Positions 1,115 to 55,902 of a stretch of 64,000 bases of DNA are shown piece after piece (position 1 is the first letter of the stretch; each line of letters opens with the position of its first letter). The notes below the pieces were generated by a model. It was given only the letters and a program-made list of their open reading frames with translations. It did not search any database and had not been told where the DNA came from. The stretch is from a virus: the IMG/VR virus record IMGVR_UViG_3300025133_000077, positions 1 through 64,000 of that record; one strand, given 5' to 3'. The translations under genes and the position numbers were made by a program.

Positions 1115-1467
1115 GGGCACTCCTCGGCGAGCCCCTGGGCTAGCAGCAGGCTCGCCAGGTCACCGGCGAGGGGCTCCCCGTGGCTGTCCATGGGGTACAC
1201 CAAGGCCAGCCAGCGGCCGTACTTGCCGCTCTTGTCCTTGAAGGTGCGGAGCAGCACGGGCTTGTTGAGCACGCGCTCCCTCACGAAGTCGCGGGCCTCT
1301 CGAGCCAGCGCCTTCGTCTCCTCGGTACCTCCTCGGAGCTCGGGCGTGTCGATGCCCTTGAGGCGGAGCTTCTGCTTCTTGAGCACGACGCCGAAGCCGA
1401 GGTCGATGTCCACGGTGAGGGTGTCGCCGTCGTAGACGGCCGTGACGAAGGCGCGGTACTCGTACAT
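1111..1467 (-). CDS. Thermonuclease (staphylococcal nuclease-like), no signal peptide
   Basis: Motifs YDGDT, LRLKGIDTPE and KYGRWLA. The ATG at 1467 overlaps the upstream stop (TGATG). Confidence 0.9.
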   Translation of the reverse strand: MYEYRAFVTAVYDGDTLTVDIDLGFGVVLKKQKLRLKGIDTPELRGGTEETKALAREARDFVRERVLNKPVLLRTFKDKSGKYGRWLALVYPMDSHGEPLAGDLASLLLAQGLAEECP

Positions 1468-4400
1468 CAGGTCCCCTTGCGGGCCCATCCCTGGCGCTTC
1501 TTGTAGCGGATCGGCTTCGGGCGGCCCTGCCGGCGGACGCTCTTCAGCAGCTTGTTGGCGTTGGTGTCCATCTGCTTCGGCAGGATGCCACGGCCCGTCT
1601 TGTCCTTGGCCAGCCCCTTCTTCGGGGCGACCCCGACGAGCCCTCGCTCCGGGATGTAGATCTTGCGGTAGTCCACCGTGACCTCTTCACCCGCCTCCAG
1701 CTCCCGCAGAGCCACCAGGTAGCGGGCCTTGCCCTTCTTCTTGATCTCGGCGTTGGGCTCGTAGCTGTGGTTCGTCTTCCGGCCCTCCGGCGACTGCATC
1801 CCGCGCTCGTCGAAGGCGACGGCGATGGGCTTGCCCTTCTTGACGGGCTCGTCGGTGAAGAAGCCCTTGCCGTGGATCTTGGACGGGTGGACGGCTGCCT
1901 TCTTCTGCAGGGGCAGGTGGTAGCGCAGGAACATCGAGCTCGGCTGGTACTTGTGCAGGAACTCCGACGGCACGTCGGAGGGCCTGAAGTCCTTCCCCAG
2001 CAACGGCTTCCCGTCCTTCGCAGCCCCGCGGTTGTGCTCCTTGCGGATCCTCCTCCGCTCAGCACGACTTCCGAAGCGGATGCCTGGCGTCTTCGCCCAG
2101 ACCGCCTTGCCCTGGTCGTCGGCCTCGGCCCCGACGTGGGTGGCTCCCAGGGACTTGCCGGCCTGCGCGATGCCCTTCATCCCCGCCGCTCCGATGCCAC
2201 GACGACGGAACTCCGGCTTCAGGTACATCGAATCCGCCTCGACGTGCCACTTGCCGCGCAGCAGCTTCTTCTTGAGCGTCAGGTCCGCGGTGCCGTACGA
2301 GAAAGCGTGATCGTCCTCTTGGAAAGGGTTCTTGTCGCCGTCGGTGCGCAGATGGATGGTGGCCTTGGGGCTCATGAACCCCAGCCCTCGGTACGTCTCC
2401 ACCTTGTGGAGCTTGGTGTGCTCGGGCAGGTGCTGCGGAATCGCCTTCTCCAGGTGCTCCCGCAGCACCTTCGGCCGATCCCGCCACCTGGTCTTCGCCA
2501 GCAGCTCGGAAGCCTCCTTCTTCCGCGGGGTCCGAGAAAGCACGAAGCGCTCCTGGGCCGTCAGCGCCTTCTTCCGCCCCTTCGCCACCTTGGCCATCAC
2601 CAAGGCCGTGGAGATGCGCTTCCCGCGCACCGAGCGGTTCCTGAGCGCCTTCTTGAAGTCCTCCACCGAGCAGGCGGAGAGCGAGCCGAAGAACTTGGGG
2701 TTGTCGTAGGCGCGCAGGTACTCCCGCTTCGCCTCCTTCGCCGAGGTGAAGCCGAGCATCACCTTGTCCTCGTCGAAGACCTTGAAGCCGGGCGCCTTCA
2801 TCTGGTGGACGATGTAGACGATGTCGCTCTTCTCGTTCGGGCCCACGTAGACGTCGACGGGGTCGCCGTCGGCGCCGAGGCTCCGCGGCACCTCGCCGTA
2901 GTGGTGCGGCATCACCGTCCGCCACTCCTTGCCCTTGGGGCCCTTGCCCTTGCGCACGGAGCCGCGCTTGTTCTCGATGTTGATCTTGATGCCCTGGAAG
3001 GTGCAGGTGCCCTGGTAGGGGAACTCCTTCCGGTTCCTCTTCGGGGGTGACGTGATCTTGACGGCCGCCGTCTTCGCCTGCCCCGGGGGCTTCGGAGGGG
3101 CGGGCGGCTTCGGCAGCTTGAAGATCTTGCCGCCGGACTCCACCTGCGCTGCTCCCTGCGGAGATCCGAACCGGCGAATCTGCTGCTGCAGGGCGGCCGG
3201 GGCGTGGACCATGCGCTGATCTTGCCCAGCGTCTGCGGCTGCGGTCCTGCCCCGGCGGAGGGCGGACCACGCCCTGTGCATGGGGCTGCCTCGGTACTGC
3301 TCCGTCGGGGCGTTCGAGATGCCTCCCTTCGCGCGGATGAAGCCGAATGCCTGCTTCTGCATCGCGGCCTCGCGAGCATGCCGCTCCCGCCGGGCGCGCA
3401 AGAGGCGGTGCACCCCGTACCCCGCCAGTGCCGTGGCACCGACTGCCGCTCCGCCGATAGCCACCTGTCTGCCTGTCGGCCTCCAGCCGCGCGCTGCGGA
3501 GGGGGGAGCCGAAGTAGGAGTCGGAGCTGGAGTGGGCCGGGAAGCCACCACCTTCTCGGCCACCTGCTTCGCCGCCGGGGCAGCGGCGGGAGCCGGGCGG
3601 GAAGCCACCACCTTCGCAGCTACCTGCTTCGCTGCGGGCGCGGACTTGGCCGCAGCCTCTTGCTTCACCTTCGCTGCAGCAGCGTCCCGCTGCTTCTGGA
3701 AGGCAACGGGACTGACCCCTGCTCGCCGGGCAGGACGCACCACGTCCCGGTGATACCTCTGGTTCTTCAGAGTCTGCTGGTGCCAGTCCAGTTCCTCCGT
3801 CGGCCTACCCGTCCTGACCTTCTCCTGGAGCAGCTCGTGCAGCTTCCTGTGCCGGTGCTCCACCGGGCCCGCTCGATTCTTGAGCAGGTGTCGACTGTGC
3901 CGAAGTTGCGACCTGTCGCCGCCTTCGCGGACCTTCTTCTCGAGGTCCAGGCTGTCCAGGTACTCCAGACGCTTCCACGTCTGCATGTCCTGGCGAGACG
4001 GTTCTCCCGGCCTCCACTTCGGCTCGGCAGGCCGCTTGAGGGTCGAGGGATCCCGCTCTCGCAGGTACCGCGGCTTCCCTGCCATCTTCTCGTGTCCGCC
4101 CAGCACCTGCCGCACCATCATCTGCACGACCGCCCAGAGCTCTGGGCGGTCCATGTCGTCAAGGTGCTGCTTGCCAACTGCCCGTTGACAATCCGCCATG
4201 AAGGCGGGGGAGTTGTCCCATTCCACCCCCAGGTGGTCAGCGATTGCGTGGACCTGCTCCTGGTCGAGCTCCGTGAAGCCGCGGCCCTTGCCCAGGTTCT
4301 GCAGCCACTCCGCGGTGTGCTGGGGCGTGCTGTACCTGCGCTCCTTCCACAGCTGTGGATGAAGGCTGTGGGCAACCCCGTGCCGCTCGAAGAGGGCGAT

Positions 4401-4769
4401 GGTCTGGTCGAGGCCGAACTTGTCGCAGGCCATCTCGAGGTGGATGGTCGGCCGGAAGTCCCGGAGGTACTCCTCGTCGGTGCGGGCGTCGACGACGTGA
4501 CCGAGGTCGTGGTAGCCGGACCAGGCCCGGTCCTCCAGGGAGACCGGGACTCCGCGCCGGCGCATGGCGAGGTAGATGACCTTGTTGACCTCGTCCTGCG
4601 CCGCGTAGCTGGGCATGTCCTCCAGGATGTGGAGGCGGTACCCGTACTTGGCGAGCTCCCCCTCGAGGTTCGAGAGCACGAGCTTCCACGCCCGGCCCTC
4701 CTCCCTCTCGGGAGGACGGTCTACCGCAGCTCCCGTCTTGACGAAGTCGACGAAGTCTTCAGTACGCAT
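1467..4769 (-). CDS. 1100-aa polyvalent protein: zincin-like N-terminus, Ala/Pro/Lys linker, hydrophobic helix, InPase (inorganic pyrophosphatase-like), GNAT acetyltransferase and SET domains
   Basis: HDLGH...E near the N-terminus. InPase: IENKRGSVR...HYGEVPRSLGADGDPVDVYVG...FDEDKVMLGF. GNAT motif A: YLKPEFRRRGIG. SET: SKIHGKGFFT...NHSYEPNA...ALRELEAGEEVTVDY. Confidence 0.8.
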   Translation of the reverse strand: MRTEDFVDFVKTGAAVDRPPEREEGRAWKLVLSNLEGELAKYGYRLHILEDMPSYAAQDEVNKVIYLAMRRRGVPVSLEDRAWSGYHDLGHVVDARTDEEYLRDFRPTIHLEMACDKFGLDQTIALFERHGVAHSLHPQLWKERRYSTPQHTAEWLQNLGKGRGFTELDQEQVHAIADHLGVEWDNSPAFMADCQRAVGKQHLDDMDRPELWAVVQMMVRQVLGGHEKMAGKPRYLRERDPSTLKRPAEPKWRPGEPSRQDMQTWKRLEYLDSLDLEKKVREGGDRSQLRHSRHLLKNRAGPVEHRHRKLHELLQEKVRTGRPTEELDWHQQTLKNQRYHRDVVRPARRAGVSPVAFQKQRDAAAAKVKQEAAAKSAPAAKQVAAKVVASRPAPAAAPAAKQVAEKVVASRPTPAPTPTSAPPSAARGWRPTGRQVAIGGAAVGATALAGYGVHRLLRARRERHAREAAMQKQAFGFIRAKGGISNAPTEQYRGSPMHRAWSALRRGRTAAADAGQDQRMVHAPAALQQQIRRFGSPQGAAQVESGGKIFKLPKPPAPPKPPGQAKTAAVKITSPPKRNRKEFPYQGTCTFQGIKINIENKRGSVRKGKGPKGKEWRTVMPHHYGEVPRSLGADGDPVDVYVGPNEKSDIVYIVHQMKAPGFKVFDEDKVMLGFTSAKEAKREYLRAYDNPKFFGSLSACSVEDFKKALRNRSVRGKRISTALVMAKVAKGRKKALTAQERFVLSRTPRKKEASELLAKTRWRDRPKVLREHLEKAIPQHLPEHTKLHKVETYRGLGFMSPKATIHLRTDGDKNPFQEDDHAFSYGTADLTLKKKLLRGKWHVEADSMYLKPEFRRRGIGAAGMKGIAQAGKSLGATHVGAEADDQGKAVWAKTPGIRFGSRAERRRIRKEHNRGAAKDGKPLLGKDFRPSDVPSEFLHKYQPSSMFLRYHLPLQKKAAVHPSKIHGKGFFTDEPVKKGKPIAVAFDERGMQSPEGRKTNHSYEPNAEIKKKGKARYLVALRELEAGEEVTVDYRKIYIPERGLVGVAPKKGLAKDKTGRGILPKQMDTNANKLLKSVRRQGRPKPIRYKKRQGWARKGT
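3538..3650 (-). repeat. Imperfect 60-bp tandem duplication in the linker of the polyvalent protein
   Basis: Two copies of cgggaagccaccaccttc...cacctgcttcgc 60 nt apart, encoding APAAKQVA(A/E)KVVASRP. Confidence 0.8.
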
Positions 4770-7700
4770 AGGGCTTCTTCTCCGTGCCCTTCCCGAACTG
4801 CGTGCCCAACACCAGCCCGGGGATCGGGTTCGTCCCGTGGATGTTGGTCTTCCAGCCCTGGGCTCCGCCCTCGGTGAGGGTCTTCTTCAGCTCACGGTAG
4901 TTGAGCCGGCCCATCCAGTCCTCGCTGGAGGCCATCGAGACCTCCTGGATGCCCTTGAGCACGGGGTCGTGGTCAGCTCCCTTGCCGCCCTTCTTCCCGA
5001 TCTCCCGGTTCACCTGCTCCAGCTTGGTGGTGGGGACCATGTCCCCTCGCAGGAAGCCGGTGTCCCCGGGCTGCTTGATCATCGAGAGGTTGGTGAGCGA
5101 GCGGACCACGGTCTCCATGTTCCGCTTCTTCACCTTGCCGCCGTAGGCGCCGTGCATCTCGTCGGTGAGGTAGCCCTTGACGCTCTCGATGCCGGCGACT
5201 TCCAGCAGGTGGTGCGGGTTCACGGGGCCGGAGGACAGAGCCTCGCCGAGAGCGACCTCGATCATCAGCGTGCCGCGGAGTGCGCGCATGACCTTGTCGG
5301 AGGGCTTGTTCCTGGCGGGGATGTAGTGGCTCTTCGGCGTGGGGAAGTACTTCCCGTACCGATCCTTGCCGCGGATGTGGACACGCCAGCCGCCGGCGGG
5401 GTCCACCTCGGCCTTCATGATCTGCCCCTTGTACGAGGAGATGGTGGCCTCGCCCGGCAGGGACTTCGTCAGGTGGAGCAGCTGCCCGAGCCGGGTGAAG
5501 GAGTCGGTGCGGCTGGCCTCGGCCTTGCTCACGACACCGCCGGTGTGGAAGGCGTTCATCGAGAGCTGCGTCGCCGGCTCGCCGATGGCCTGGGCCGCCC
5601 AGATGCCCACGTTCTCGCCGAGCGACGGGGAGCTCCCCGCCTCCGTGACGCCGTAGCACATCGCGCACACGCCCTCGGACTCCTCGCACTTCAGCGGGGA
5701 GCGGACGAGGACCTGGGCGACGCCCGAGTTCTTGATCTTGGTCAGCACCTCGGCGGTGAGCAAGGTCTTGCTGGGCACGTCGCCCTTCTTCAGCTTCACG
5801 GGGACCGCGGTGTAGCGGTCGTGGATCTCGGAGTCGGCCACCGACATCAGCACGCCGTTGGTGGTCCCGCAGTCGGGGGAGGTCACCAGCTGGTTGATGT
5901 TGGCGCTGACCAGGTCCTTGGTCAGCTCTCCGGGAGCCTGGGTGCCCTTCACCTTGCCCAGGGTGCCCATGCGAGCGCCGGACAGCGACGCCCAGTACTC
6001 CGCGGCGCTCAGCCCCTCGGAGTAGCTCTTCTTGATGGGGATCGGGACGGCGCTGCCGTTGGGGTCGGTGACCAGCACCGGGGCCAGAGTGAGCTGCTTG
6101 AACTGATCCCAGTTGCCTCGCGCGCCCGACTGCACCATCTCGTACATGCGGTTGCCTGTGCCCTTCATCTTCGCCTTGCCCTCGGCGTCGATCTTGTTCA
6201 GCGCCCCCATGTACGCGTCGACGACGGCCTTGTCGCGGCCCTTGCCCTTCTTCATCGCCTTCGCGGCCTCGCGGTCGGCCTCGGCGAAGTGCTTGTCGCG
6301 GATGTCCGGGCGGGACAGCACGTCCTTCAGGCTGAAGGAGTAGCCCGTGTCGTAGGTGTGCTTGTTGCCCAGCTGGTTCAGCTTGTTGACCGTGATCGAG
6401 AACCTCTGGGGGTGCGCCTTGGCCAACGGAGCCAGCAGGGAGGACACCGCGCCCTTGGTGAGCACCAGCGCCGGGTCCGCCAGGACCTTCTGCCTCTCCT
6501 TGGAGCCCGCGGGGAAGCAGTTGGCCAGCATCAGGCGGCCGACCGTGGTCTTCTGCTGGCCCGCCTCCTTGATCGTCTCGTCGATCTCCGGGGCCCAGTG
6601 CGAGCCTCCTCGCCACCACGCCGCGGTCTTGGTGATCACCGAGGAGCCCACCGTGATCTCCTCGGACGCGGTCACCTTCCCCTTCTTGTACGCCTTGATG
6701 GCGTCGTCGGCGGAGACGAAGGTCTTGCCCGTGCCCTTGCCCCACTTGCTCAGCTGGTAGAGGCCGAGCTGCGCCTCCTGGCTGGGCAGGTTCATCAGCC
6801 GGCCGGAGGAGGCGCTGAACAGGTTGTTCGAGGGCACCATCTTGCGGGCCTCGGCCACAGCCTCCTGGGTCAGTGGAACGTAGATCGCCGTGGTGTCGCC
6901 GTCGAAGTCCGCGTTGAACCCGCCGGTCACCAGGGGGTGGATGCGGATGGCCTTCCCCTTCACCAGCTTCGGGTGGAAGGCCATGATCCCGTGCTTGTGG
7001 AGCACGGGGTCACGCTTCATCAGCACCGGGCGGTCCCGCACGACGGACTCGAGCGCCTTCTTCGCCACCGGATCGTTCTGCTTCACCGCGAGCTGGGCAC
7101 GCAGCGGGGAGTAGCCGAAGACCTGGACCAGCTCCCGCACGACGAAGGGCTTGTACATCTCCATCGCCGCCTTCTGGGGCAGCCCCACCTCGTCCAGTCC
7201 CATCGACTGCTCGGGGATGATCGTGGAGCGCATGGACAGGTCCATGCGGCGGCCGATGATCTTGTTCTGGAAGTAGCCCGACTTCGGCTGCGTCCCCTTC
7301 ACGGTCTCGAGCACGCCGCGGTAGTGCCGGCCCTGGTACTTCTGGCCGTCCATGGTCAGCGCCTTGAGCCCGTCGTACAGCTCGCGGTACAGCGGCACCT
7401 TCTGGTTCTGGGGGAGGCCGGGGTCGAAGTCGCGGAGCTTCTGGTTCGTGAGGGACAGCCCCTTGTAGAGCTGGTTCACGTCGGCCGCCGTGGTGTTGCC
7501 GCTGTCCATCACGGACACGGGGCGGAACTTGGGCGGCATGATCGGGATGTGCTTCCGCATGTACGCGTCGGCGGGGTTGAGCTCGGCCGCCTTCAGCGCC
7601 TGGAGGTAGCGGACACGCCGGCGCAGCCGGCTGAGCTTGTACTTGCGCGCACCCTTCAGGGCGGTCAGCGTCTTCTTCAGCTCTGCGTCCAGGTCCAGGC

Positions 7701-10700
7701 CCCGGAGCGCCTTCTCGATGCCCTCGGCGCCCTTGCCTCCGCCGGGGACCTCCTTCTCGTGCCCCACGATCGCAGCGATGTCCCCCTTCTTGAGGTCCAG
7801 CAGCGACGTGATCGCGTTGTCGAACAGGGGGTTGGGCAGCGCTGTCTCCAGGGTCATGTGCCCCCAGCGCTGCTTGTCCGCGTGCTCCGGGTGCAGGGAG
7901 CCGAAGATCTTCTCGTCGAAGATGCCTCCCTTCTCCGGCTTCATGTCCTTGCCCCGGAACATCCGGCCCGGGTCAGCGACGTGCCCGTTGCTCAGCCCCA
8001 GGACCTGCTTGTCCGTGAGGGGCTTGAGCTGCATCTCGTCGCCCTTCTTCTCCACGTCGAGCCCCATGGTCTTCAGGAACCCCTCGAACTTGTGGTAGGT
8101 GAAGGGGATCTTGGGAGCGGGAAGGGCCTGGCCGGAGTGCAGGGCCGTCCACATGTCGGCGTTGTAGTCCGACTTGTGGGTGTACATCTCCCGGAGGTTG
8201 TGCCGCGCGCCGTGGGCGAGCATGGAGTACAGGCCGAGCGCACTCAGGGACTGGGCGCTGGTGCCACCTCCCTCCTTGGGGGAGCGGTCCAGGTTGTACG
8301 GCGCCGACGTGCCACCGGAGCGGGAGGTCATCTTCTTGGAGACCTTGTGCTTCATCTTGAAGATGTACTGGTTGCCGATCAGCACATCCCCCATCTTCTT
8401 GCCGGTGTCGGGGTCGAAGAGCTCCTCCGTGTCGGACAACCCGTGCTTCTTCAGCTCGGACTGGACCACTCGGCCGTAGTCGGCCTTGCCCTCCTCCTGG
8501 GGGAAGTTGTCGACGTGGTACGCCTTGCCGGACTTCTCCGCGATCTTCCCCGCCAGGGTCTCGAGCACCTGGCCGACGTTGATGCGGGACGGGACGCCGT
8601 GGGGGTTCAGGGCGATGTGGATCTGGTTGCCGTCCTTGGTGACCGGCATCTCCTTGTCGTGCACGATGCGGGAGATGATCCCCTTGTTGCCGTGGCGGCC
8701 GACCAGCTTGTCGCCGACCTGCGCCGGCTCCTCGGTCTTGATGTGGACCTCGATCTGCTTCGCCGTCCGGATGACGCGGACGACCTTGCCCTTGTAGCCC
8801 TTGTCCCAGAGCACCGATCGGTTCGAGTAGTCCTGCACCTTCGAGCGCTTCAGGGCCTGGTAGGCCGCGGCCTCCGAGCCGATCTCCCGCTTCTGCAGCT
8901 TGGCGATGAGGACGTCCCCCTCCTCGACGTCGGAACCGTCCTTGATCACCCCGCGGGGGTCGAGCTTGGCCATCTGCGCCGTCGTCACGGTGCCGGGCGA
9001 GATGTGGGCGAGGAACTTGGCCTTGTCGAACACCGAGTTGCGGTCGATGGTCGTCGACATCCGGTACATGTGCAGGCTGGTGAGCATCGAGGACGCGGAC
9101 TGGGAGATCACCACCCCGTCCTCGAAGTTGTAGCCCTTGAAGGGGACGTAGCCCACGCGGAGGTTCTTGCCGAGGGCGAAGGTCCCGTCCTTCGTGAAGT
9201 TGGTGTCGGCCAGGAGCTGCCCACGCTTCACGCGGTCGCCCACCTTCACCTTCAGGTGGGCGTCGAGGTAGGCCTCGTCCTGGTTGAGGGGGAAGTCCTT
9301 GTAGACCTGGACCTCGTGCTCCTTGCCCGTGCTGTCGCGGATGAACACCGCGTCCTTCACGATCTTCGTCACCACCCCGTTGACCGGCGCCTGGTGGGAG
9401 TTGAAGGAGCCCATCATCTGCTCGAAGGTGTGTCCCTCGCCGGCGTCGGTGGCGCTCTGCACCAGCGGGGCCTCCCGGTGCTTCAACGAGACCACCTGCT
9501 CCTGCATCCGGGACGCCGTCATCGTGCGGTTGCCCTGGTTGTTGTGCAGGAAGGGGATCAGGTTCGTGGGCAGGGAGTACATCCCCTTCGAGGTGAGCAT
9601 CACGTGCGTCACCTCGTTCCAAGGGCGCATCATCACGTCGTTGCCCTTGCCGGCGACGGCGACGTTCTTCGCGTTCTTGGGCAGAGGCATCTCGCCCGCC
9701 CACTTCACCTGGTCGGAGAAGGCCACGACGTACCCCTGGAAGTCGTGCGGAGCCACCTTGTCGATCTTCTTGGTCTTCCGGTTGTACAGGGAGACCCGGA
9801 GCTCTCGGCCCTCCTTCTCCACGCCCAAGGGCAGCTGCAGGGTGATGCCCGTCTTCGCGCCCTCCGGAGTGGTGATGGGGTCCAGGTAGTTCAGGTGCGT
9901 GTTGTTGATCCGCAGTGCCTCCTTCGGCACACGCTGCAGGTCGGACACGGCGCCGGGACCCATGATCGTGGTTCGCATCTGCCCCGACACGAACTCCAGC
10001 GGGTTCGTCTGGTTGGGCATCTGGGCCAGCGACGTGGAGAAGAATGAGCCCATCGGCTTGCCGAAGACCGCGGGGTTGACGATCTGTCTGACCGTGCCCT
10101 TCTTCCCGTCCAGGCCCTGCCGCAGTCGGCGGCCGATCTCAGCGCGGGAGCGGTGCAGTCGGTCGGAGAGGTGGTCCTCGATGGACAGCACGTCCTTGAA
10201 GGCCAGGGACTCGCGGTCGTCCGGGGCAGCCTCACCGCGGGCGAGGCTCAACAGCTTCTTGGAGGAGGTCAGCATGGCCTCCCCGTTCACCGCGGCGAAG
10301 GGCTTGCCGAGCGTGAGCTTGGTGCTGTCCTTCCGCAGCTCCGCCGCGGACAGCGTCTTCCTGACCTCGGCCTGCGCCTCAGCGAGCGTCTCCGCCGACC
10401 CTCCGGTGGTCCTCTTGAGGATCTTGTTCAGGGACTGCAGCTGCTTCTTCTCGTCCCCGTACTTCTTGACCGAGGCGTCGTAGATCTCCCCGCCCCACGC
10501 TTTCTTGATCTTGTCGTCGGGCTCCCCCATCGCCCGGAGCACCGGGTACAGGCCGATGTCCTCCATCGAGCCGAACTTCAAGGTGAAGACGCGCTTCTCG
10601 GGGTGGAAGTAGGACCAGAAGCGGTCCGCCTTCGCGCCCTCCCAGTTGTTGATGTTCCACTGGGTCACCAGGCGCCCCGCCTCGTCCTCCCGGTGGTAGA

Positions 10701-11058
10701 CGCCCGACTTCAGGCGGAACTGGTTGTCGACCTGCCGCTCCTTGCCGTCGACGATGTAGGAGTAGCGTCGGGTGATCTTGGGGATCTTGGCCACGGTGAT
10801 CGTGGACTTGTCGATCACCTCCCCCGTGGTCTTGTCGATCAGGGAGAGACGGGCCTTGACGGGCACTGCCCAGGAGCGCCCGTGCAGCTTCGCCTCCCGC
10901 TGCGAGCGGATGTCGTCGAGGCTCAGGTCGTCGGCGACCCAACACTTCGACATCTCGAGGCGGCGGTTCTGTCCCTCGAAGGGGAAGTGATCGGCGACAG
11001 CCTCCGCGACACGGCTCTTCAGCGTCTCGAAGGCCTCTTCTGGGTCGAGCTGGGCCAT
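4759..11058 (-). CDS. Phage two-barrel DNA-directed RNA polymerase, beta and beta' fused in one polypeptide (about 2099 aa)
   Basis: Beta motifs: QTNPL, TPEG, GKNLRVGY..GYNFEDG, GDKLVGRHGNKG, LNPHGVPSRINVGQ, KMKHKV..KMTSR. Beta' motifs: GGIFDEKIFG, GRRMDLS, RDPVLH, NADFDGD (6895-6915), SGARG, DCGT..RSPLKC..C..CYG, GEPATQL..FHTGG. Start moved to the ATG at 11058 (GAGGA SD). Confidence 0.95.
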   Translation of the reverse strand: MAQLDPEEAFETLKSRVAEAVADHFPFEGQNRRLEMSKCWVADDLSLDDIRSQREAKLHGRSWAVPVKARLSLIDKTTGEVIDKSTITVAKIPKITRRYSYIVDGKERQVDNQFRLKSGVYHREDEAGRLVTQWNINNWEGAKADRFWSYFHPEKRVFTLKFGSMEDIGLYPVLRAMGEPDDKIKKAWGGEIYDASVKKYGDEKKQLQSLNKILKRTTGGSAETLAEAQAEVRKTLSAAELRKDSTKLTLGKPFAAVNGEAMLTSSKKLLSLARGEAAPDDRESLAFKDVLSIEDHLSDRLHRSRAEIGRRLRQGLDGKKGTVRQIVNPAVFGKPMGSFFSTSLAQMPNQTNPLEFVSGQMRTTIMGPGAVSDLQRVPKEALRINNTHLNYLDPITTPEGAKTGITLQLPLGVEKEGRELRVSLYNRKTKKIDKVAPHDFQGYVVAFSDQVKWAGEMPLPKNAKNVAVAGKGNDVMMRPWNEVTHVMLTSKGMYSLPTNLIPFLHNNQGNRTMTASRMQEQVVSLKHREAPLVQSATDAGEGHTFEQMMGSFNSHQAPVNGVVTKIVKDAVFIRDSTGKEHEVQVYKDFPLNQDEAYLDAHLKVKVGDRVKRGQLLADTNFTKDGTFALGKNLRVGYVPFKGYNFEDGVVISQSASSMLTSLHMYRMSTTIDRNSVFDKAKFLAHISPGTVTTAQMAKLDPRGVIKDGSDVEEGDVLIAKLQKREIGSEAAAYQALKRSKVQDYSNRSVLWDKGYKGKVVRVIRTAKQIEVHIKTEEPAQVGDKLVGRHGNKGIISRIVHDKEMPVTKDGNQIHIALNPHGVPSRINVGQVLETLAGKIAEKSGKAYHVDNFPQEEGKADYGRVVQSELKKHGLSDTEELFDPDTGKKMGDVLIGNQYIFKMKHKVSKKMTSRSGGTSAPYNLDRSPKEGGGTSAQSLSALGLYSMLAHGARHNLREMYTHKSDYNADMWTALHSGQALPAPKIPFTYHKFEGFLKTMGLDVEKKGDEMQLKPLTDKQVLGLSNGHVADPGRMFRGKDMKPEKGGIFDEKIFGSLHPEHADKQRWGHMTLETALPNPLFDNAITSLLDLKKGDIAAIVGHEKEVPGGGKGAEGIEKALRGLDLDAELKKTLTALKGARKYKLSRLRRRVRYLQALKAAELNPADAYMRKHIPIMPPKFRPVSVMDSGNTTAADVNQLYKGLSLTNQKLRDFDPGLPQNQKVPLYRELYDGLKALTMDGQKYQGRHYRGVLETVKGTQPKSGYFQNKIIGRRMDLSMRSTIIPEQSMGLDEVGLPQKAAMEMYKPFVVRELVQVFGYSPLRAQLAVKQNDPVAKKALESVVRDRPVLMKRDPVLHKHGIMAFHPKLVKGKAIRIHPLVTGGFNADFDGDTTAIYVPLTQEAVAEARKMVPSNNLFSASSGRLMNLPSQEAQLGLYQLSKWGKGTGKTFVSADDAIKAYKKGKVTASEEITVGSSVITKTAAWWRGGSHWAPEIDETIKEAGQQKTTVGRLMLANCFPAGSKERQKVLADPALVLTKGAVSSLLAPLAKAHPQRFSITVNKLNQLGNKHTYDTGYSFSLKDVLSRPDIRDKHFAEADREAAKAMKKGKGRDKAVVDAYMGALNKIDAEGKAKMKGTGNRMYEMVQSGARGNWDQFKQLTLAPVLVTDPNGSAVPIPIKKSYSEGLSAAEYWASLSGARMGTLGKVKGTQAPGELTKDLVSANINQLVTSPDCGTTNGVLMSVADSEIHDRYTAVPVKLKKGDVPSKTLLTAEVLTKIKNSGVAQVLVRSPLKCEESEGVCAMCYGVTEAGSSPSLGENVGIWAAQAIGEPATQLSMNAFHTGGVVSKAEASRTDSFTRLGQLLHLTKSLPGEATISSYKGQIMKAEVDPAGGWRVHIRGKDRYGKYFPTPKSHYIPARNKPSDKVMRALRGTLMIEVALGEALSSGPVNPHHLLEVAGIESVKGYLTDEMHGAYGGKVKKRNMETVVRSLTNLSMIKQPGDTGFLRGDMVPTTKLEQVNREIGKKGGKGADHDPVLKGIQEVSMASSEDWMGRLNYRELKKTLTEGGAQGWKTNIHGTNPIPGLVLGTQFGKGTEKKPYAY

Positions 11059-11131: not shown

Positions 11132-11146
11132 CGGCATAAGCAGAGT
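11132..11146 (+). promoter_or_regulatory. Candidate phage-RNAP promoter motif CGGCATAAGnAnAGT
   Basis: 13 of 15 nt identical to 16372-16386. The TAAG ends 36 nt before the first plus-strand start codon. Confidence 0.5.
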
Positions 11147-12141: not shown

Positions 12142-14148
12142 TCACACCAGCGCCCTGCCGGGGTCTCGCCGGGGCGGCTTCTGCGACGGGAGCGGAGACT
12201 GCTGCGCGTCGAGCGGGTCCCGGGTCTCCTTGGAGCCCTGCATGATCTGCAAGACCAGCGAGTAGAAGTGCGGCTGCGTCGACTTCATCTTCTGCATCGC
12301 CGCGTAGGCGTCCGGCGGCTTCGTCTTGAGCAGCTTCCGCAGCTCGTTCGCCGTCCGCTTGGCCACGTAGAAGACGTCCTGACCCGTGCCCGGGTCAGCC
12401 GTCAGCTGAGAGGACGCCTCCTGCGGGACGCCTGTGACCGGAGAGGACTGCCCGTTCTCCGGGTACAGCTTGGCCCCTGCCGGGCCCTCGACGGGGCCGC
12501 TGCCGCCCTCCTGGCCACCCTCCTGGCCAGGGCCGAGCTGCATGGCTCCGCCCCCGCCCACGAGGTCGGACTGGGCCGCCTGCATGTAGAGCTGCATGAC
12601 CTGCTGAGCCTCGCCCTGGCCGACGGCCGCGGAGACCTGGGCCCGTCGCTGGTCCTCGGCCTGCTTCCTCGACTCGGAGCTGAGCAGCAGCCGCTCGGTC
12701 TCGTAGTCCTCGTTGAGTTCGCGCAGGAAGGTGTGGTCGGAGATCTTGTTGGCCTGGTTGGCCTGGAAGTAGATCATCGTGCGCTGCAGGTCGTCCGCCA
12801 TCTTGAAGCGGCGGAACTTCTTGCCCACGCGGGGCCAGCCCAACCACGCGCCGATGGAGTCGAACACCCAGTCCGTGAGGCCCTGGATGTCGGCGCGGTA
12901 GTTGATGAACTCGTTCTCTAGGTTCCGCATGGAGACCTGCGTGCCGGAGTAGCCGAGGCCGCCGAAGATAAACTCCTGCGGGACGTGGAGGCCGGCGACG
13001 ATGTTCTCTGCCCAGACGCGGTACTCCTGGTGGAGCACCATCGCTCGGCCCTGGCCGCCGACCATCTGGTGTCCCACGGGGAGGGGCAGGATCGGGATGT
13101 AGTTGGGGTCCCGCCGCCACCGCTCGATCTCCTCCTCCATCTGGCTCTTCCAGCCGGTGAGGGGCATCGTGGTGTACGGGTCGCTGGTCCCGGAGCCGGG
13201 CTGCGGGAAGATCATGCGCAGCGGCACGATGTGCTCGCGGGCGATGGCTTCCTGGCCCTTCTTGAGGATCTGCAGGTAGTAGGAGTCCTTGAGCACCGGC
13301 AGGATGCGGGACAGACCCCAGCCCTTGTCGTTCCCGTTGCCCGAGATGGACGGGCGCCGCATGTGGAAGAGCTGGCCCGGGGCGAACCGGAGGCCGGTCT
13401 TCTTGCGGGCGGCCTCGACGAAGACGTTGGGGATCTCCTCCTGAAGGTGGTTCCTTCCGATCATCAGCCGCGCCCGCGTGCGGGGGCTCATCTCGTAGTA
13501 GTACCTGCAGTGCCCGGTCTCCTCGTTCACATCGATGGCGATGCGCTCGGGGTCCCACCGGACGAGCCCGATCTTGTACGGGCTCCGCTGCCAGACATCG
13601 AGGGGCTTGGCGTTGCCCACCTTCCTGCACTTGGGGCAGGTGAGGCGGTAGTTCAGCTCCCGCCACTTGTAGTGGGGCCGCAGCTTCTTCGCCGGCGCCT
13701 GGTACTTGCAGTGGTTGCACTGCAGGAACTTCACGAAGGGGTAGTTGATCGAGGTGAAGGAGTTGCCGTAGCACTGGTAGTCCAGGCCGGTCTCCACCTG
13801 GAAGCTGCGGAACTTCAGGATCTGGTCCTTGAGGTACTTGTACTTCCGCGCCACCGCCTCGTGCTTGCTCTCGAACACCAGGTCGGTGATCGGGTACGAG
13901 GCCATCTTGTAGATGACCGCGTTCACCAGCGGGTTGGTGAAGAAGTAGTAGCGGCACCAGCGGAACAGCTTCTTCTGCGACGAGGGCAGGTAGGTGTGCG
14001 CTCCGTCGAAGAAGGGGCTGGGGTACGGCACGCCGGCCCGGCCCGAGGCCCCGAAGAAGCCCGAGCGCAGGTTGGCGAAGCCGCTGCCTCCGGCGGTGCC
14101 GCCGCTCACCCCGTACGTGGGCAGCCCGAAGTCGAATCCCTCAGCCAT
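12142..14148 (-). CDS. Putative portal protein with Zn-ribbon insertion
   Basis: Portal-like pattern: RWCRYYFFTNPLVNAVIYKMASYPI, DYQCYGNSF, LFHMRRP...GWGLSRILPVLK, IVAGLHVPQEFIFGG; Gly/Gln/Pro-rich C-terminal tail. Confidence 0.7.
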   Translation of the reverse strand: MAEGFDFGLPTYGVSGGTAGGSGFANLRSGFFGASGRAGVPYPSPFFDGAHTYLPSSQKKLFRWCRYYFFTNPLVNAVIYKMASYPITDLVFESKHEAVARKYKYLKDQILKFRSFQVETGLDYQCYGNSFTSINYPFVKFLQCNHCKYQAPAKKLRPHYKWRELNYRLTCPKCRKVGNAKPLDVWQRSPYKIGLVRWDPERIAIDVNEETGHCRYYYEMSPRTRARLMIGRNHLQEEIPNVFVEAARKKTGLRFAPGQLFHMRRPSISGNGNDKGWGLSRILPVLKDSYYLQILKKGQEAIAREHIVPLRMIFPQPGSGTSDPYTTMPLTGWKSQMEEEIERWRRDPNYIPILPLPVGHQMVGGQGRAMVLHQEYRVWAENIVAGLHVPQEFIFGGLGYSGTQVSMRNLENEFINYRADIQGLTDWVFDSIGAWLGWPRVGKKFRRFKMADDLQRTMIYFQANQANKISDHTFLRELNEDYETERLLLSSESRKQAEDQRRAQVSAAVGQGEAQQVMQLYMQAAQSDLVGGGGAMQLGPGQEGGQEGGSGPVEGPAGAKLYPENGQSSPVTGVPQEASSQLTADPGTGQDVFYVAKRTANELRKLLKTKPPDAYAAMQKMKSTQPHFYSLVLQIMQGSKETRDPLDAQQSPLPSQKPPRRDPGRALV

Positions 14149-34834: not shown

Positions 34835-35087
34835 GCCCCCTCTTCTTAGCGTGCAACCGCGTCGTGCGGCTCTTGGCGATCTCCGTCACCCGGTTCTGGT
34901 GCTCCGCGTAGTCGGCGCTCCGCGCGTGCACCTGCTTGCGCCTTCGCTCGACCTTCCACGGCGTGTCGACCACGAGCGTGGCCGCTGGAGACATCTGGGA
35001 CGGCTGCGGCTCTCGAACGGGGGCCCTGCGCCGCGGGGCAGTGCGGGTGCCCTGCTTCTGCTTCTCGGCGAGGTCCCGCGGGTTCAC
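34830..35087 (-). CDS. Small basic hypothetical protein
   Basis: GTGA-coupled to the upstream 1838-aa gene. Confidence 0.5.
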   Translation of the reverse strand: MNPRDLAEKQKQGTRTAPRRRAPVREPQPSQMSPAATLVVDTPWKVERRRKQVHARSADYAEHQNRVTEIAKSRTTRLHAKKRGR

Positions 35088-38000
35088 GGGTTCATCCGGG
35101 TGTAGCGGCAGCCGAGCGTGGCGCCGCGGAACCGGAACCGGGTGAAGTCACTCCAGTTCGGGGAGCTGCCGGAGTCGTGGTTCGGGATTCCCCACCGAGT
35201 CGCTCCGGGGAAGGCGTAGTCCCCGGCGACACCGATCCCGTCCAAGAACTGATACTCCGTGATGGACCCGACACCCCAGCACTTGATCACCAGGCTGTAC
35301 GAGTACTGCCTACGGTCGACCTGCAGGAGCCGCTCGTTCTTGGGGGTTCCGAAGGGGTCCGTCAAGTCGATCTTCGTCAGCAAGAAGGCGTCGTCGTTGT
35401 AGAAGTCCCCTCCCGTGAGGATGCTGCAGTCGGTGTGGAGCGAGTTGATCGTGGAGATGGACTGAGGGTCGGGCTGCGCCGGGAGCGGCACCCCCTCGAG
35501 GTCCACTACCTCCTGGTGAATCAGCTCGCCGAAGCCTCCCCCGAATGCCTGCCAGGACACCACCTCCGTGGCAGCCACCGTGTTGCCGCGTGGGTCCTGG
35601 GGCAGGTTCTCTGTGGGAAGCACCGACTGGCGCCACACCTCGATGAGGAAGCCCTCGCGCGCGATGCCCGTGCCCTGCAGCCCCGGGTCGCTCTCGCAGT
35701 CCACGTCCCGGAACACGCACCACGTCGGGACGTGGCTGCCGTCGTCCTTGGTCTTCATGACGATGGGGTTGATGGCGGGGAAGATGCTGGTGACGACGCT
35801 GAGGGTGGAGAGGATCGACCCGTGTGGCGGGTCAAGAGGGACCACGTGGCCCACCATGCCCCCTCGCCGACCTGCATCCAGGGTCTTGTGGCCCAGGGTC
35901 CCTCCTCCCACGGACACCGGCGGAGCGAACTTGCCGCCCAAGAAGATGAAGGCAGCGTCGTTGCGTCCACGGAACCAGTAGTTCGCGGGAGACATCATGT
36001 CGATGAACTCTTCGTTCTCGTCCTTGCGGATCCACGACACCGTAGGTGGGTCAGCGTACCCGTGGTCGTCCGTTCCCACCGCGCCGTACGCCCGCATGTC
36101 GCCGTACCCGATGCCTCCGTACGGCCCGGCGTTCCCCGGGCCGTAGCTCTTCCAGTCCAGCGCCTCGGTATGCAGCTCGAACCCAGACGCAACGGTCGCG
36201 CCGGTCGTGACCAGGTGGCCTGCGACGGCTGACCTCTGCATGTTCTCGACCGCGGCCTGGAAGACGTAGAGGTCGAGGCTGGACGCTGCTTCGGGAGGCA
36301 GCGTGTCTCCGAGCGCGAGGCGCAAGATGACCGGAGAGCCCGACTCCAGCGCGTCAGCTGTGTCCTCGCGGAGGTCGAAGCCCATCTCCGCGCTGTTGAA
36401 CGTCAGCTGGACCGCCTGCTCGTCCTCGGGGTCGAAGGTCATCGTGAAGCTCTTCTCCACGCTGATCAGGTTGCCTCCGATCCCATCGACGAGGGCGACA
36501 CGAATCGTCTTGTTCTGCCCCGTGGCCTGCGGCCCCGCAGCCAAATGCTTGAGCCGCAGCGTCACCTTGTAGCTGTAGTGGTGCTTGAACGTGTGCTGCC
36601 CCGTCTTGACGTAGGCGAACAGGTCCTCGGGATTGAAGGGGTTGCCTCCGTCCAAGGCCACATCCCACCGGATGTGGATCCCTCCCGATGTCTCCCCGTC
36701 GAAGGACTCGTCGAAGCGGGTGTCGATGTTGTACTTGACCGGCCCCGATACTCGAAAGGCCCACTCCCCGCTCTCGAAGTTCGTGAGGGCAGTGGCCGCC
36801 CCCCCGTCGCCCAACGGCTCCGCCAGGGGGTGCCACGCCTCATTGGCGATGGGGTGCCGGGAGGTGCCCAGCTGCAAACCCAGGCTCCAGGACCCGGGGT
36901 TCGCGTTGATGATCCCTGCCCCGTTGGCGTAGTCGCGGCGGGCCGCTGGAATGGTGCTGTCGAGCGACAACGATGTGACGCCGGCGATGGCCCCCAGGTC
37001 GAACGCGGCCACCTTGCCGGCCTCGATGCGGCGCGTGCCGAGCATGGCAAAGCTCTCGAGGTCGACGTTGGCGAAGTGCCATCGGCTGCCGAGGATCGAC
37101 GCCTTGTTCTCCCCGATGTCCGTCGGAAGAGTCACCCCCTCCTTGAGGACTTCCACCCAGTAGCGAGGGTTCTCCCCCTCGGGGATGTAGACGTTGATGA
37201 TCGTGTAGACGCCGTCGTACTGATCGTCCACGGCATCGAGCTTCATCTGCTGCCCGATGTAGGCGGCCGGGTCCTCTGTGATCTTCCTCTCGCTGGCATC
37301 CCCGTCCCACACCAGGAAGCCGCTGCTCCTGGCGGAGCGGCTCTTGGTGGGGTCTGGCGGGAACAGGAGCACCGAGAACGACGCCGAGTCGTGCTTGGGC
37401 GGAAGGACCTGTCCCGGCTGGCCCAGCCGGGCGAGCTTCATCGTCCCGTCGACGGCCGTCGTGTGGTACCGCGTGGCGTCCACCGCGATCGGGGAGTTCG
37501 AGAAGCGCGACCCCATCGGCAGCTCGGTGTAGATGCCGCCGTACATGTTGTGGAGGTTGCCGCCCTCCGACCAGAAGCTGCGCGGATCCCACTGGTACAG
37601 GGCGCCCAGGAACTCGCCGGCGCCGCTCTGCATCATGGACCACTGGTCCTCGCGCGCGATCACAGCCGTCGCCTTGCCGTCGACGAAGGTGAGGTCGTCG
37701 GGACTCGGAGGGGTCGAGTGCACGCCGCCGTTCTGCCAGCCCACCGCCACCAGCGCGGAGTCCGTCCCCTGCTGGGCCAGGTACAGGGCGGTGCCCCGCA
37801 TCAAGGGGTCCTGGGCCGAGCCGTCCATGGAGTAGGTGTCGGCCAGGAAGGCCCCTGCCCAGCCGCCACGCTCCAGAGCCGTCGCAGGGTTGTTGCCTTC
37901 GGGGCTGAGGTCGTCCCCCTCCTGGGCGCCGGAGTGCCAGCTCTCGAGGCCGTTGGCCGGCATGTACGAGGAGAGGTAGGCCGCGGAGCCGACGGCCGCG

Positions 38001-41262: not shown

Positions 41263-44200
41263 CTACCTCTTGACTCGCAGGATCCTACCAGTTGTCGCCC
41301 CCAGGGGCAGACTCCTCGTGAGCGTGAGCGTGCCCGCCGACACCTCTGCGATCACGTAGTTGCCCGGGGAGACGGAGAAGGTCTCCAGCTCATCCCCAGG
41401 CCGCACACCCAGAAGACCGAAGTCCACTCCGAGCAGGGAGACTACCTGATCCCCCGCACCCACCACGTTGAAGTCCGCCGAGTCCCTCAGGACGCGAGCG
41501 TTCTCCAGGCCGGCGCCCTGGAGATGAGCTGCCACCCCGAGGGAGACACCTGCCACAGAGTCCAGCAGGTACACCCCGCTGTCCACCCCTCCTTCAACCT
41601 GGAGGAAGTCCGTGGGGACTGCGCCGGCGGGAGGAGCGGTGGCGGTGAAGACGCTGCCTGTCGAGCTGACCTGGAACCCGGAAGCAACCACTGAACGAGG
41701 CCGGTAGAGGGCCAGGACCAGCTCGGTCTGCGGGAAGAAGTCGAGGACCTGGTTGGCGAGCATGCCGTCGAACTCGGAGAGCTCGGCGCGGGTGATGGTC
41801 GCGTTGGCCGGCTTCCCCGCGGCGCTGGGTGGGGCGGGGCGGACGTAGACGTCGGTGTCGGACAGCACGTCGACGACCTGGTACGTGCCCTTGCCGGCCT
41901 CCCCGAGCACCTTCAGCTCGTCGCCGAAGCGCAGCATCTTCAGGTCGAGGTCGGCTCCGGCCATGACGACGACGTTCGTGCCGTCGGTGATCGCCTGCGC
42001 CTCCACCAAGGGATTGGTCTCGAGCACGGGTCGCCGGATCTCGTAAGACACCGACGCCCCTCCCAGCGGAGGAGCCGGCTCCACCACCAGTTGGAACCAG
42101 GGGTAGAGGCCGGGGCCGGGGTTGAGGACCTCCCGGATGTGGTACACGCCTCGGCCCGTGGCGCTGGTGATGATCAGCCGGTCGTCGACGGACACACCCT
42201 CGGTGAAGAGGCACTTCCCCGAGAGGTCCTGCACCACGTTGGGCGCAGAGGGGTGTCCTCCGTCCAGCGTGAGCGTGGTCCCCGTCGTGATGGGGTTCCG
42301 GGCGGGCCGGAAGACGAAGAAGGACTGCTCCGTCCCGGCCTGCACTCCCAGGAGTGCAGGGGAGGGGACGTCGTACTGCGACTGCGCCGTCACCTCGATC
42401 GCGGTGTCCGACGGGACGGAGTCCACGAGGAACCACCCCTTGTTGGGTCCCTCGAAGATCCGGAGCAGGTCCCCGGGCCTGACCAACGGGGAGCCGTGCT
42501 GCACCGTCACCACGTCGTACCCGACGTACGGAGCAACGGTCAGTGGGTCGATGAAGCCGCCCCGGGCCGACGTGAAGGTGAGCGGCCCCGCTCCTCCCGC
42601 CGGCGTCTCCAGGTCCCTGCCCATGAAGAGCATCCTGGAGTTCATGGGGCCGATGTTCACGTGCTGCAGGATCAGGCCCGAGCCGTTCGTCGAGTCCGCG
42701 GCGGCCAGGGCCTCGATGCGGCCGAAGGGGTCGTCGATGAGGCGGGAGCGCACGGCGAAGTAGAGACCGTCCTCGATCGTCACCTCGTCGACGAGCGGCT
42801 TGACCATCACCACGTCCACGTCGGTCCAGGCCGGGTCCATCGCCCGGGCGAACTGCTCCACCAAGTCCATGTCCGAGGAGTCGGTGACGTCGACGTTGGC
42901 CCTCAGCGTCCAGGTGTGGAACTTCCTCAGCTCTGCGGCGGTGTCCCCCTGCAGGAACTTCCCCATCCACCAGCCGGGGGTCTCGACGTAGTCGGTGGTG
43001 ATCACGCCCTTGGCCAGGGACGCGAACCGCTCCACGGTGTCGCCCACTGCGTAGGGGCGCCCGGTCACCGGGTTCGTCTCCAGGCCGGAGTAGTCGGTGA
43101 GCGTCTCGTTGGTGAGGGGCTTGTAGAAGTAGAGCCGCACCACCCCCGCGGGCTCGCCCTCCTGGGTCAGATCCTCGACGAGAAGGCGGCCAAGCTCCGC
43201 AACGCCGTCGGCGTCGACGCGGTAGTCGTCCTTCACGTCCCGGATGATCCCCCGCACGTCAGCCAGGGGGAGCCCCAACAGGACCTGGGCGCCCAGGCGC
43301 AGGTTGCTGAGGAGCGGTCCGGTGGCCCAGGCGTACATCAGGGCCAGGACGGCCTCGCGGTACGTGGTGGAGGAGGTCTCCTGGTCGGAGAGCTGCTCGC
43401 GGGTGAGGGAGACGAGGGTGCCGAAGTTGTTCTCGATCGCCTCGGAGTTGTCGACGAAGGTGGTCTCGGCCCACAGCCTCTCGGGCGCGGGACTGGTCGG
43501 GCCGTAGGTGCCAGGGACGAAGCGGAGGTACTTGTCCGGCAGCCGGCGGATCAGGGTGTAGGCGAGGCCGGTGCCCGTGACCGAGAAGACTGCCCCGGTC
43601 GTCACCCGGACGGCCTGGAGCTGCGTCTCGGAGAGGGCCTGGAGCACGACGTAGTTCTCGTCCAAGACCTCGAGGAGGTCGCCCACCTCGACCCCGCGAC
43701 TGAGGAACATGCCCGTCGCCGAGGTGAAGATCTCCGACCCCGCGCTGATGGCCCCGTCCGTGCCGAAGAGATCCCCCTCTCCCTCGATCACGTAGTCCCG
43801 GTTCTCCACGAGGTCCGCGGGGTCCCGCGGGATGGTGGTCCTCGCGCCGTCTCGAGTCAGGATGTCGAAGGTGCCGTCGTCGCCCTCGATCGCGAACGTC
43901 TTGCCCACGTACTCCTGCAAGCAGGGCACGGACACAACGTCCTCGTCAACGGGGAGGAGGGTGTTGCGCGACAGGTACTGCGCCGAGATCCGGAAGGAGA
44001 ACCCGGCCACGGTGAAGACGGTGTCCTTCGTGTGGGGCAGGTTGTTGTACCGGGCCCGGAAGGCGAGGCTGCTCAACGCGGTGTCGACGGCGAGAGCTTC
44101 TCCCTCCAGGAGGGGATCCCCCATCGCGTCGTAGGAGGCGCCGGGGATCCCCAAGGCCAGGGCGAGGTCCACCTTCTCCTTGGTCGTCAGCCCCGTGGGG

Positions 44201-48268: not shown

Positions 48269-48574
48269 GTGATCTTCACGACGATGCCGGAAGAGCAGCT
48301 GCTGGCCCTCACCGACGGCGAGGAGTGCATCCTGCAGGACGTAGACGACGCGGCGCGGGAGCGAGTCCGCTCCAAGCGCTGCCCGGAGTGCTCCCAGGGC
48401 GTGATGCCCGTCGTGGACCCAGACAAGCCGTTCGACAACCAGACCGCGGGCTTCCGGTACGTCGCCCGGTGCACCGCGTGCGGCTGCGTCTTCGATCCGG
48501 AGAGCGGGGTCATCCGCAAGATCGGCTGCTCCAGTCCCATCCTGCCTCCTACGACAGCACGAGTGGGAGGGTGA
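48269..48574 (+). CDS. Small Zn-ribbon protein, antisense to the baseplate operon
   Basis: CPEC...CTACGCVFDPESG; coding-like GC3; fills the only gap in the minus-strand operon. Confidence 0.7.
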   Translation: MIFTTMPEEQLLALTDGEECILQDVDDAARERVRSKRCPECSQGVMPVVDPDKPFDNQTAGFRYVARCTACGCVFDPESGVIRKIGCSSPILPPTTARVGG

Positions 48575-55609: not shown

Positions 55610-55902
55610 GGCTCCTCCTCGATTTCCCGGGCGCGTCGGAACGCCCCATCGTCACCGAACAGCGCGGCTTCCAGGCTCTCGAGCCTCTGGAGCCGCCCCG
55701 TCGCATGGGATCGGATAGTACTGGTCGGGTCCAGGTCCGCACCCTCTCCTTGCTGCGATGCGTCCAGGAAGAAGATCTGCTCCGTGATCAAGTCCTCCAG
55801 GGTGTACCCCGCCAGTGCGGTCGCCGTCGACATCGAACGCACCAGTGCGAAGGCGCCGCCCAGCGCCCGGCGAACCTCGATGCTGGCGGCGCGATCACCC
55901 AC
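55606..55902 (-). CDS. Hypothetical protein
   Basis: Coupled between neighbouring genes. Confidence 0.5.
   Translation of the reverse strand: MGDRAASIEVRRALGGAFALVRSMSTATALAGYTLEDLITEQIFFLDASQQGEGADLDPTSTIRSHATGRLQRLESLEAALFGDDGAFRRAREIEEEP

Follow-up and report, generated by a model that had tools for sequence, protein, structure and literature searches.

A Single-chain Phage RNA Polymerase without the beta' N-terminal Zinc-binding Domain and Its Probable sigma70-family Partner

Results

Domain Organization of a Fused beta-beta' RNA Polymerase

A gene for a fused beta-beta' RNA polymerase (RNAP) was analyzed in 64,000 nucleotides (nt) of viral DNA, positions 1 to 64,000 of the IMG/VR virus record IMGVR_UViG_3300025133_000077. 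This stretch is called the window below. It is part of a 74.7-kb record with a CheckV completeness of ~40% and a GC content of 67%. The sigma70-family protein analyzed as the partner of the polymerase is encoded on the same record, just outside the window. Phage-type genes surround the RNAP gene and code for helicases, DnaB, DNA polymerase, UvsX, a baseplate protein, and a polyvalent protein. All features are listed in Table 1, where RNAP residues are counted from the ATG at nt 11058.

Table 1. Positions of the features described in the text
Feature	Position (nt)	Strand	Residues or basis of assignment
Fused beta-beta' RNAP gene, 2099 amino acids (aa)	4759..11058	minus	ATG at 11058; Pfam and bacterial beta' structure matches
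Beta flap	8773..8967	minus	aligns to E. coli beta flap
Diverged flap-tip helix IGSEAAAYQALKRSKV	8836-8883	minus	aligns to E. coli tip segment LTPEEKLLRAIFGEKA
Start of beta' part (GDEMQLKPLTDKQ)	8005..8043	minus	directly after beta C terminus
Cys-free 25-residue segment GGIFDEKIFGSLHPEHADKQRWGHM replacing the beta' N-terminal zinc-binding domain	7855..7929	minus	residues 1044-1068
Lid-equivalent segment RPVSVMDSGNTTA, retained	7486..7524	minus	aligns to E. coli beta' 250-262
Clamp helices (beta' coiled coil)	7345..7488	minus	residues 1191-1238; profile alignment to E. coli 262-310
T1204; L1223; G1230	7447-7449; 7390-7392; 7369-7371	minus	
Catalytic NADFDGD motif	6895..6915	minus	residues 1382-1388
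Second zinc site, intact	5656..5871	minus	C1730, C1791, C1798, C1801
Portal protein gene, 668 aa, next large gene on the RNAP strand	12142..14148	minus	match to Arash portal gp204
Polyvalent protein, 1100 aa (InPase, GNAT, SET), downstream, overlaps the RNAP gene end	1467..4769	minus	Pfam and PHROGs
sigma70-family protein, 266 aa	65272-66072 of the contig, outside the 64-kb window	minus	Pfam, PHROGs, profile, Foldseek

A single reading frame holds the Pfam domains Rpb2_6 and Rpb2_3 and, after them, Rpb1 domains 1-5. Rpb1_2 and Rpb1_5 were matched with 97 and 79 bits, respectively, and the matches to Rpb1_1, Rpb1_3, and Rpb1_4 fell below their cut-offs. Solved bacterial beta' chains in the PDB matched the protein with an E value of 2e-120. 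The segment at the start of the beta' part aligned with M. tuberculosis beta' residues 8-55, and the alignment to E. coli RpoB stopped just before it. The frame of 2099 codons is intact, with a GC content at third codon positions of 0.95, and the residues of the catalytic motif were invariant in 35 aligned relatives. An identical protein is present on a 188-kb contig, and more than 800 relatives of ~2050-2110 aa were found in metagenomes. The gene encodes a compact single-chain beta-beta' RNAP from a large, mostly uncultured family with genomes of ~165-215 kb. By its NADFDGD motif, Rpb1 domains 1-5, second zinc site, and clamp fold, the polymerase is of the bacterial beta' type.

Loss of the N-terminal Zinc-binding Domain

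A family profile was built from 103 intein-free relatives, and the phage RNAP and E. coli RpoC were aligned onto it with hmmalign. Counts of relatives in this and the following section refer to these 103 sequences. In E. coli the N-terminal zinc-binding domain comprises ~50 aa with four ligand Cys (C70, C72, C85, and C88). Every one of the 103 relatives has 20-28 aa without any Cys in its place. The four-Cys domain was not found in the phage RNAP, whose Cys residues after the true start are those at positions 39, 1514, 1730, 1791, 1798, and 1801. A phmmer comparison with M. tuberculosis beta' agreed with the profile alignment on both flanks of the absent domain and resumed after it. In an AlphaFold2 (AF2) model the replacement segment formed a short ordered loop and a helix, with a predicted local distance difference test score (pLDDT) of >90. 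The zinc domain is also absent in two cultured phages that are more distant, Arash of Salmonella and D181 of Vibrio. An initial annotation of the window, made from its letters alone, had described the replacement of this domain by a Cys-free segment, and the description was borne out by a check of positions, by the alignments, and by the relatives.

The same annotation had called the second zinc site intact, which it is. C1730, C1791, C1798, and C1801 align to E. coli C814, C888, C895, and C898 and are kept in 101 of 103 relatives. All four Cys are replaced (by A, S, Y, and D) in the other two, so a few members of the family may be without any zinc site. In bacteria the channel for RNA exit and the sigma linker is lined by the beta' zinc domain, through which termination and antitermination are controlled. 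Loss of the domain probably alters or removes regulation at this site.

Clamp Helices and Flap Tip

The AF2 model of RNAP residues 985-1330 had a pLDDT of 90.2 and a predicted template modeling score (pTM) of 0.78. The clamp helices appeared in it as two helices, at positions 209-225 and 237-251 in the numbering of the model. The initial annotation had proposed a superposition of a predicted structure on a bacterial enzyme. With E. coli beta' 17-345 as reference (6wmu_D; VIA-align), this gave a Z score of 24.0 and a root mean square deviation of 2.4 A over 260 residues. The phage protein thus retains the clamp fold, in a form ~65 residues shorter. The rudder-equivalent loop (window region 7195-7290, residues ~1238-1250) is 6 residues shorter than that of E. 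coli, and the stretch that matches E. coli beta' residues 110-190 is ~30-40 residues shorter.

In the profile alignment T1204, L1223, and G1230 correspond to E. coli R275, E295, and A302, a placement identical to the one made by eye in the initial annotation. The exchanges R275Q, E295K, and A302D in E. coli beta' impair sigma70 binding or holoenzyme formation, as summarized in PMC8321222. Conserved contacts in a proper alignment were the outcome that the annotation had set against its own claim, and R275 and E295 were kept in 0 of 103 relatives. At position 275 the family has S, V, T, I, L, A, or M and never R. Position 295 is occupied mainly by L, I, V, or M, also by R, T, or Q, and never by E. 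At position 302, G was found in 60 relatives and A in 18. Arash gp206 has V, L, and G at the three positions, and D181 shows the same pattern. The flap-tip helix of the beta part is present as well, with E. coli L901, L902, I905, and F906 replaced by A, Y, L, and K. Judged from the alignments, the loss of the zinc domain together with the replaced sigma70 contacts appears to be ancestral to a large phage family.

A sigma70-family Protein Encoded on the Same Contig

Pfam matched the 266-aa partner protein with Sigma70_r3 at 30 bits (cut-off 25.3) and with Sigma70_r4 at 20 bits, just below the cut-off. A search of the contig with Pfam Sigma70_r2 gave no match, and region 2 became visible only with the profile of the phage sigma family. 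The PHROGs sigma-factor family matched the protein at 1.6e-14. A profile of 11 members of the sigma family matched structures of SigA, RpoD, and RpoS with an E value of 2e-15, and the match runs from residue 391 to residue 599 of sigma70 (regions 2.1 to 4.2). An AF2 model of the phage sigma had a pLDDT of 80, and all 50 Foldseek matches listed for it were sigma factors. The partner protein belongs to the sigma70 family, with regions 2, 3, and 4 in order and a sigma fold. The initial annotation had left promoter recognition to an intrinsic property of the enzyme or to an unrecognized phage factor. A phage factor is indeed encoded, and "unrecognized" does not apply to it, since Pfam, profile, and fold all place it in the sigma70 family.

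Region 2.2 of the phage sigma reads AVIEAEVNKQFL, compared with LDLIQEGNIGLM in E. coli sigma70. D403, Q406, and E407 of sigma70, which on the strength of region 2.2 mutants we take to be core-binding positions, correspond to V72, A75, and E76, so the Glu alone is kept. In Arash gp10 these positions are A, G, and E. The core still has the clamp helices and the beta flap tip that make up the docking architecture, and on both partners it is the contact residues that differ in identity.

Predicted Core-Sigma Docking

A complex of RNAP residues 1000-1300 and sigma residues 1-135 was predicted. The interface score ipSAE was 0.76 versus 0.00 for the best of three controls; 58 of 80 solved complexes attained the mark applied to this score, as did 2 of 110 mismatched pairs. 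Prediction runs shared at least 71% of the contacts, and the pLDDT of the partners was at least 76. The predicted interface lies between RNAP 1196-1230, which includes residues 1204, 1223, and 1230, and sigma 67-82. T1204 and L1223 are predicted to pack on A71, V72, and A75, and K1207, the equivalent of E. coli R278, lies beside E76. The predicted geometry is the canonical one of region 2.2 on the clamp helices, with polar pairs replaced by hydrophobic ones. This model points to physical binding between core and sigma.

Co-occurrence of Core and Sigma

The sigma was found in 21 of 26 IMG/VR records picked via the RNAP, and in 13 of 13 of those that were at least 90% complete. When records were picked independently via the sigma, 26 of 27 contained the RNAP, as did 20 of 20 at the same completeness. 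A search of 50,697 phage records matched the sigma in four only, those of Arash and of Vibrio phages D69, D148, and D181, and it is these four that contain phage-type full-length relatives of the RNAP. Searches of 20 complete relatives for alpha (PF01000) and omega (PF01192) subunits gave no score above the cut-off.

Gene Neighborhood and Virion Proteins

The portal protein was 31% identical to Arash gp204 (E value 5e-82), and the Arash portal gene likewise lies just upstream of the RNAP gene. On the other side, the polyvalent protein has an InPase domain (135 bits), and its relatives in PHROGs are minor head, DarB-like, and injected proteins. The gene order around the sigma is also shared. 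In Arash it is hydrolase gp8, gp9, and sigma gp10, and in both phages a large virion cell-wall hydrolase is encoded upstream of the sigma. In the present phage the order on the minus strand of the contig, outside the window, is a 1111-aa protein with an endolysin/tail-lysozyme domain (67433-70768), a 455-aa protein of no known family (66069-67436), and the sigma, whose gene overlaps the preceding one by 4 nt.

Purified virions of Arash were analyzed by mass spectrometry, and the RNAP beta protein Gp206 was the most abundant protein, with 3516 spectra (PMC10585845). Beta' Gp216 and sigma Gp10 were detected too, the latter at 100% coverage. Virion-packaged RNAPs are also those of N4 and the vRNAP of phiKZ. 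By analogy with Arash, the RNAP of the present phage is probably packaged in the virion and may start transcription on entry, and the position of its gene beside the portal gene and a polyvalent protein of the injected type supports this indirectly.

The motif CGGSATAAG occurs three times in the window, at 11132, 16372, and 29872 on the plus strand, and each copy heads a plus-strand transcription unit. The expected count was 0.25, and 1 of 100 shuffles reached 3. The first two copies share a longer element, GAGGATnnnCGGCATAAGnAnAGT, and the divergent regions at ~11.1 kb and ~16.4 kb carry the element CGGCATAAG. The element is a candidate phage promoter. Elsewhere in the window, four very large proteins are encoded on the minus strand at 35084-40600, 41263-45969, 48549-54971, and 55895-58660 (1838, 1568, 2140, and 921 aa). 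The only family matches among them were a baseplate-wedge segment and a weak PKD domain.

Variation of the Polymerase Gene among Relatives

Many relatives of the RNAP are longer, at 2400-2970 aa, and carry internal LAGLIDADG, Hom_end, or intein-splicing domains (P0012, P0014, P0019, P0030, P0040, P0047, P0117, and others). The gene is split in Arash and in Vibrio phage D181, where a homing endonuclease gene separates the parts. The polymerase is, in this family, a hotspot for both inteins and homing elements. The phage collection also yielded matches labeled Staphylococcus, Enterococcus, Listeria, Acinetobacter, and Salmonella, which we left out of the set of phage relatives. They align from about residue 260 onward, those that are annotated have separate rpoB and rpoC genes, and their appearance is that of cellular rpoB-rpoC from records that are contaminated or lack annotation.

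Discussion

Taken together, we interpret the two proteins as a private phage holoenzyme, in which core and sigma have co-diverged from a bacterial pair and which is probably delivered in the virion. We assign this reading a probability of roughly 0.65. The beta' N-terminal zinc-binding domain would have been excised in the ancestor of the family, and the polar clamp-helix contacts that correspond to E. coli R275 and E295 would have given way to small or hydrophobic residues. The bacterial docking architecture of clamp helices and flap tip would have been kept and would bind the cognate sigma70-family factor with its regions 2, 3, and 4. Region 2.2 of this factor would have changed reciprocally, D403 to V or A and Q406 to A, S, G, or H, with E407 kept. 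Core and sigma would then form a holoenzyme with no phage alpha or omega that reads phage promoters without host sigma70. If Arash is a guide, the pair would be packaged in the virion, and transcription would begin on entry. The initial annotation had concluded that promoter recognition is independent of host sigma70. Its structural reading, with the zinc domain missing and the contacts replaced, is correct, and a cognate sigma is encoded; independence itself is plausible only. We infer that host sigma would be excluded from the phage core.

Several observations weigh against the private holoenzyme. N266, Y269, L279, K280 (as K or R), L299, L306, and G310 of the clamp helices are still bacterial-like in the family, and M. 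tuberculosis already has S at the position of A302, so binding of host sigma could persist. Complexes of sigma and core are abundantly represented among solved structures, and the result of the docking prediction may therefore reflect likeness to solved holoenzymes. The prediction supports binding and carries no information on specificity versus host sigma. Phage sigmas commonly redirect host RNAP, and co-occurrence alone is compatible with this as well. A comparison of RNAP clamp helices with sigma region 2.2 in 38 genomes, a small and phylogenetically non-independent sample, revealed no clear column-to-column covariation beyond the shared hydrophobic pattern. Packaging in the virion is known only for Arash, a relative that is ~30% identical, and its authors note a possible carry-over of abundant proteins (PMC10585845).

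The polymerase and the sigma might instead serve separate tasks. The fused RNAP would then work free of sigma, by intrinsic recognition or with a non-sigma factor, and the phage sigma would redirect host RNAP to middle or late promoters. Both activities have precedents: virion RNAPs of other phages work without sigma, and T4 gp55 and SPO1 gp28 redirect host RNAP to phage promoters. Phage sigmas that reprogram the host core are the common case in a recent review (PMC13282480), and a core in which the clamp-helix residues for sigma70 binding are replaced and the zinc domain lining the sigma-linker and RNA exit channel is missing fits with sigma-free transcription. We nevertheless regard such a separation as unlikely. 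The phage sigma has lost D403 and Q406 in region 2.2, so its binding to the host core would weaken. The sigma family was found only in genomes with this RNAP, which was present in all 20 complete records and in all 4 cultured phages; the predicted docking interface uses the very residues that are re-coded, and both proteins are in the virion of Arash.

It is quite unlikely, in our estimate, that the RNAP still uses host sigmas, with the three substitutions tolerated and the phage sigma being one more alternative sigma that competes for both cores. The bacterial-like clamp-helix residues named above, the flap with its tip helix, the superposition of the clamp at 2.4 A, and the variation of A302 among bacteria all agree with continued use of host sigma. 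Single changes of R275Q, E295K, or A302D are, however, already sufficient to impair sigma70 binding (PMC8321222), and R275 and E295 are kept in none of the relatives. In addition, the hydrophobic flap-tip residues L901, L902, and F906 are changed. Decay of a degenerating or non-functional polymerase gene, or an artifact of alignment, was considered solely on account of the metagenomic origin of the contig, and no evidence in its support was found. This explanation was rejected as highly improbable in view of the intact frame, the invariant catalytic motifs, the second zinc site in 101 of 103 relatives, the confident model of the clamp, and the agreement of three independent alignments.

The private holoenzyme can also be put in a bolder form, which we hold tentatively and consider possible rather than probable. 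The hydrophobic re-coding would make phage core and sigma bind each other and not the host partners, the deletion of the zinc domain would strip a handle for regulators at the RNA exit, and the pair would be injected. If this is true, elongation and termination regulators of the host and of rival phages would lose their handle at the RNA exit, and the phage would have private transcription from the first minute of infection.

The closest described system is the RNAP of Arash, which belongs to the same wider clade at ~30% identity and consists of Gp206 (beta and N-terminal beta'), Gp216 (C-terminal beta'), and sigma Gp10 (OQ632216, PMC10585845). It shares the absence of the zinc domain, a homologous sigma with the same pattern in region 2.2, and the synteny of portal with RNAP and of hydrolase with sigma. 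In contrast to the single chain described here, the Arash RNAP is split into two genes ~5 kb apart, and host and GC content of the two phages are very different. The accessible sections of the Arash report annotate beta, beta', and sigma and are silent on the missing zinc domain and the re-coded sigma interface (PMC10585845). A literature search for a described fused beta-beta' phage polymerase returned nothing specific beyond the Arash paper; the literature set was limited, and this is no proof of novelty. To the picture of this family the present analysis adds the absent zinc domain, an interface re-coded on both of its sides, and a prediction of docking.

The non-virion RNAPs of phiKZ and AR9 are likewise phage-encoded enzymes of the beta/beta' type without alpha or omega, and their specificity subunits, gp68 and gp226, are phage-encoded and sit on the clamp helices at the position of sigma (PMC7618050). 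These enzymes differ from the present RNAP in being divided into four beta/beta' pieces and in being far more diverged; the present core has ~25-28% identity to bacterial beta' in the clamp region. Moreover, gp68 and gp226 have no detectable sequence similarity to sigma and are sigma-like only in structure (PMC7618050), whereas the partner described here is recognizable by sequence as a member of the sigma70 family. In this respect it resembles T4 gp55, SPO1 gp28, and the sigmas of jumbo phages without RNAP, all of them phage sigma70-family proteins that set promoter specificity. It differs from these sigmas in that it always travels with a phage core and has changed core-binding residues. With the bacterial core and sigma70 (E. 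coli clamp helices 260-309) the phage pair shares the clamp fold, lid, clamp helices, flap, catalytic center, second zinc site, and predicted docking geometry. It departs from them in the absence of the N-terminal zinc domain, the exchange of R275 and E295 for T and L, the fusion of beta and beta', the absence of phage alpha and omega and of lineage-specific inserts, and a shorter rudder. Cellular fused rpoB-rpoC, for example in Helicobacter, is also one polypeptide, but its zinc domain and sigma70 contacts are kept, as are alpha and omega.

A 2026 review describes jumbo-phage RNAPs without sigma homologues on the one hand and sigma-encoding jumbo phages without RNAPs, which use the host core, on the other (PMC13282480). 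The present family joins these two textbook categories, as it combines a near-bacterial single-chain core with a bona fide sigma. It is very large, with more than 800 metagenome proteins, and phages of Salmonella and Vibrio are its cultured members. With changes on both sides of a well-mapped interface, the pair is a natural experiment on sigma-core specificity, and the family shows how a core enzyme works in the absence of the beta' zinc domain. For synthetic biology, an orthogonal transcription system of the bacterial type that is self-contained in two genes would be of use as well.

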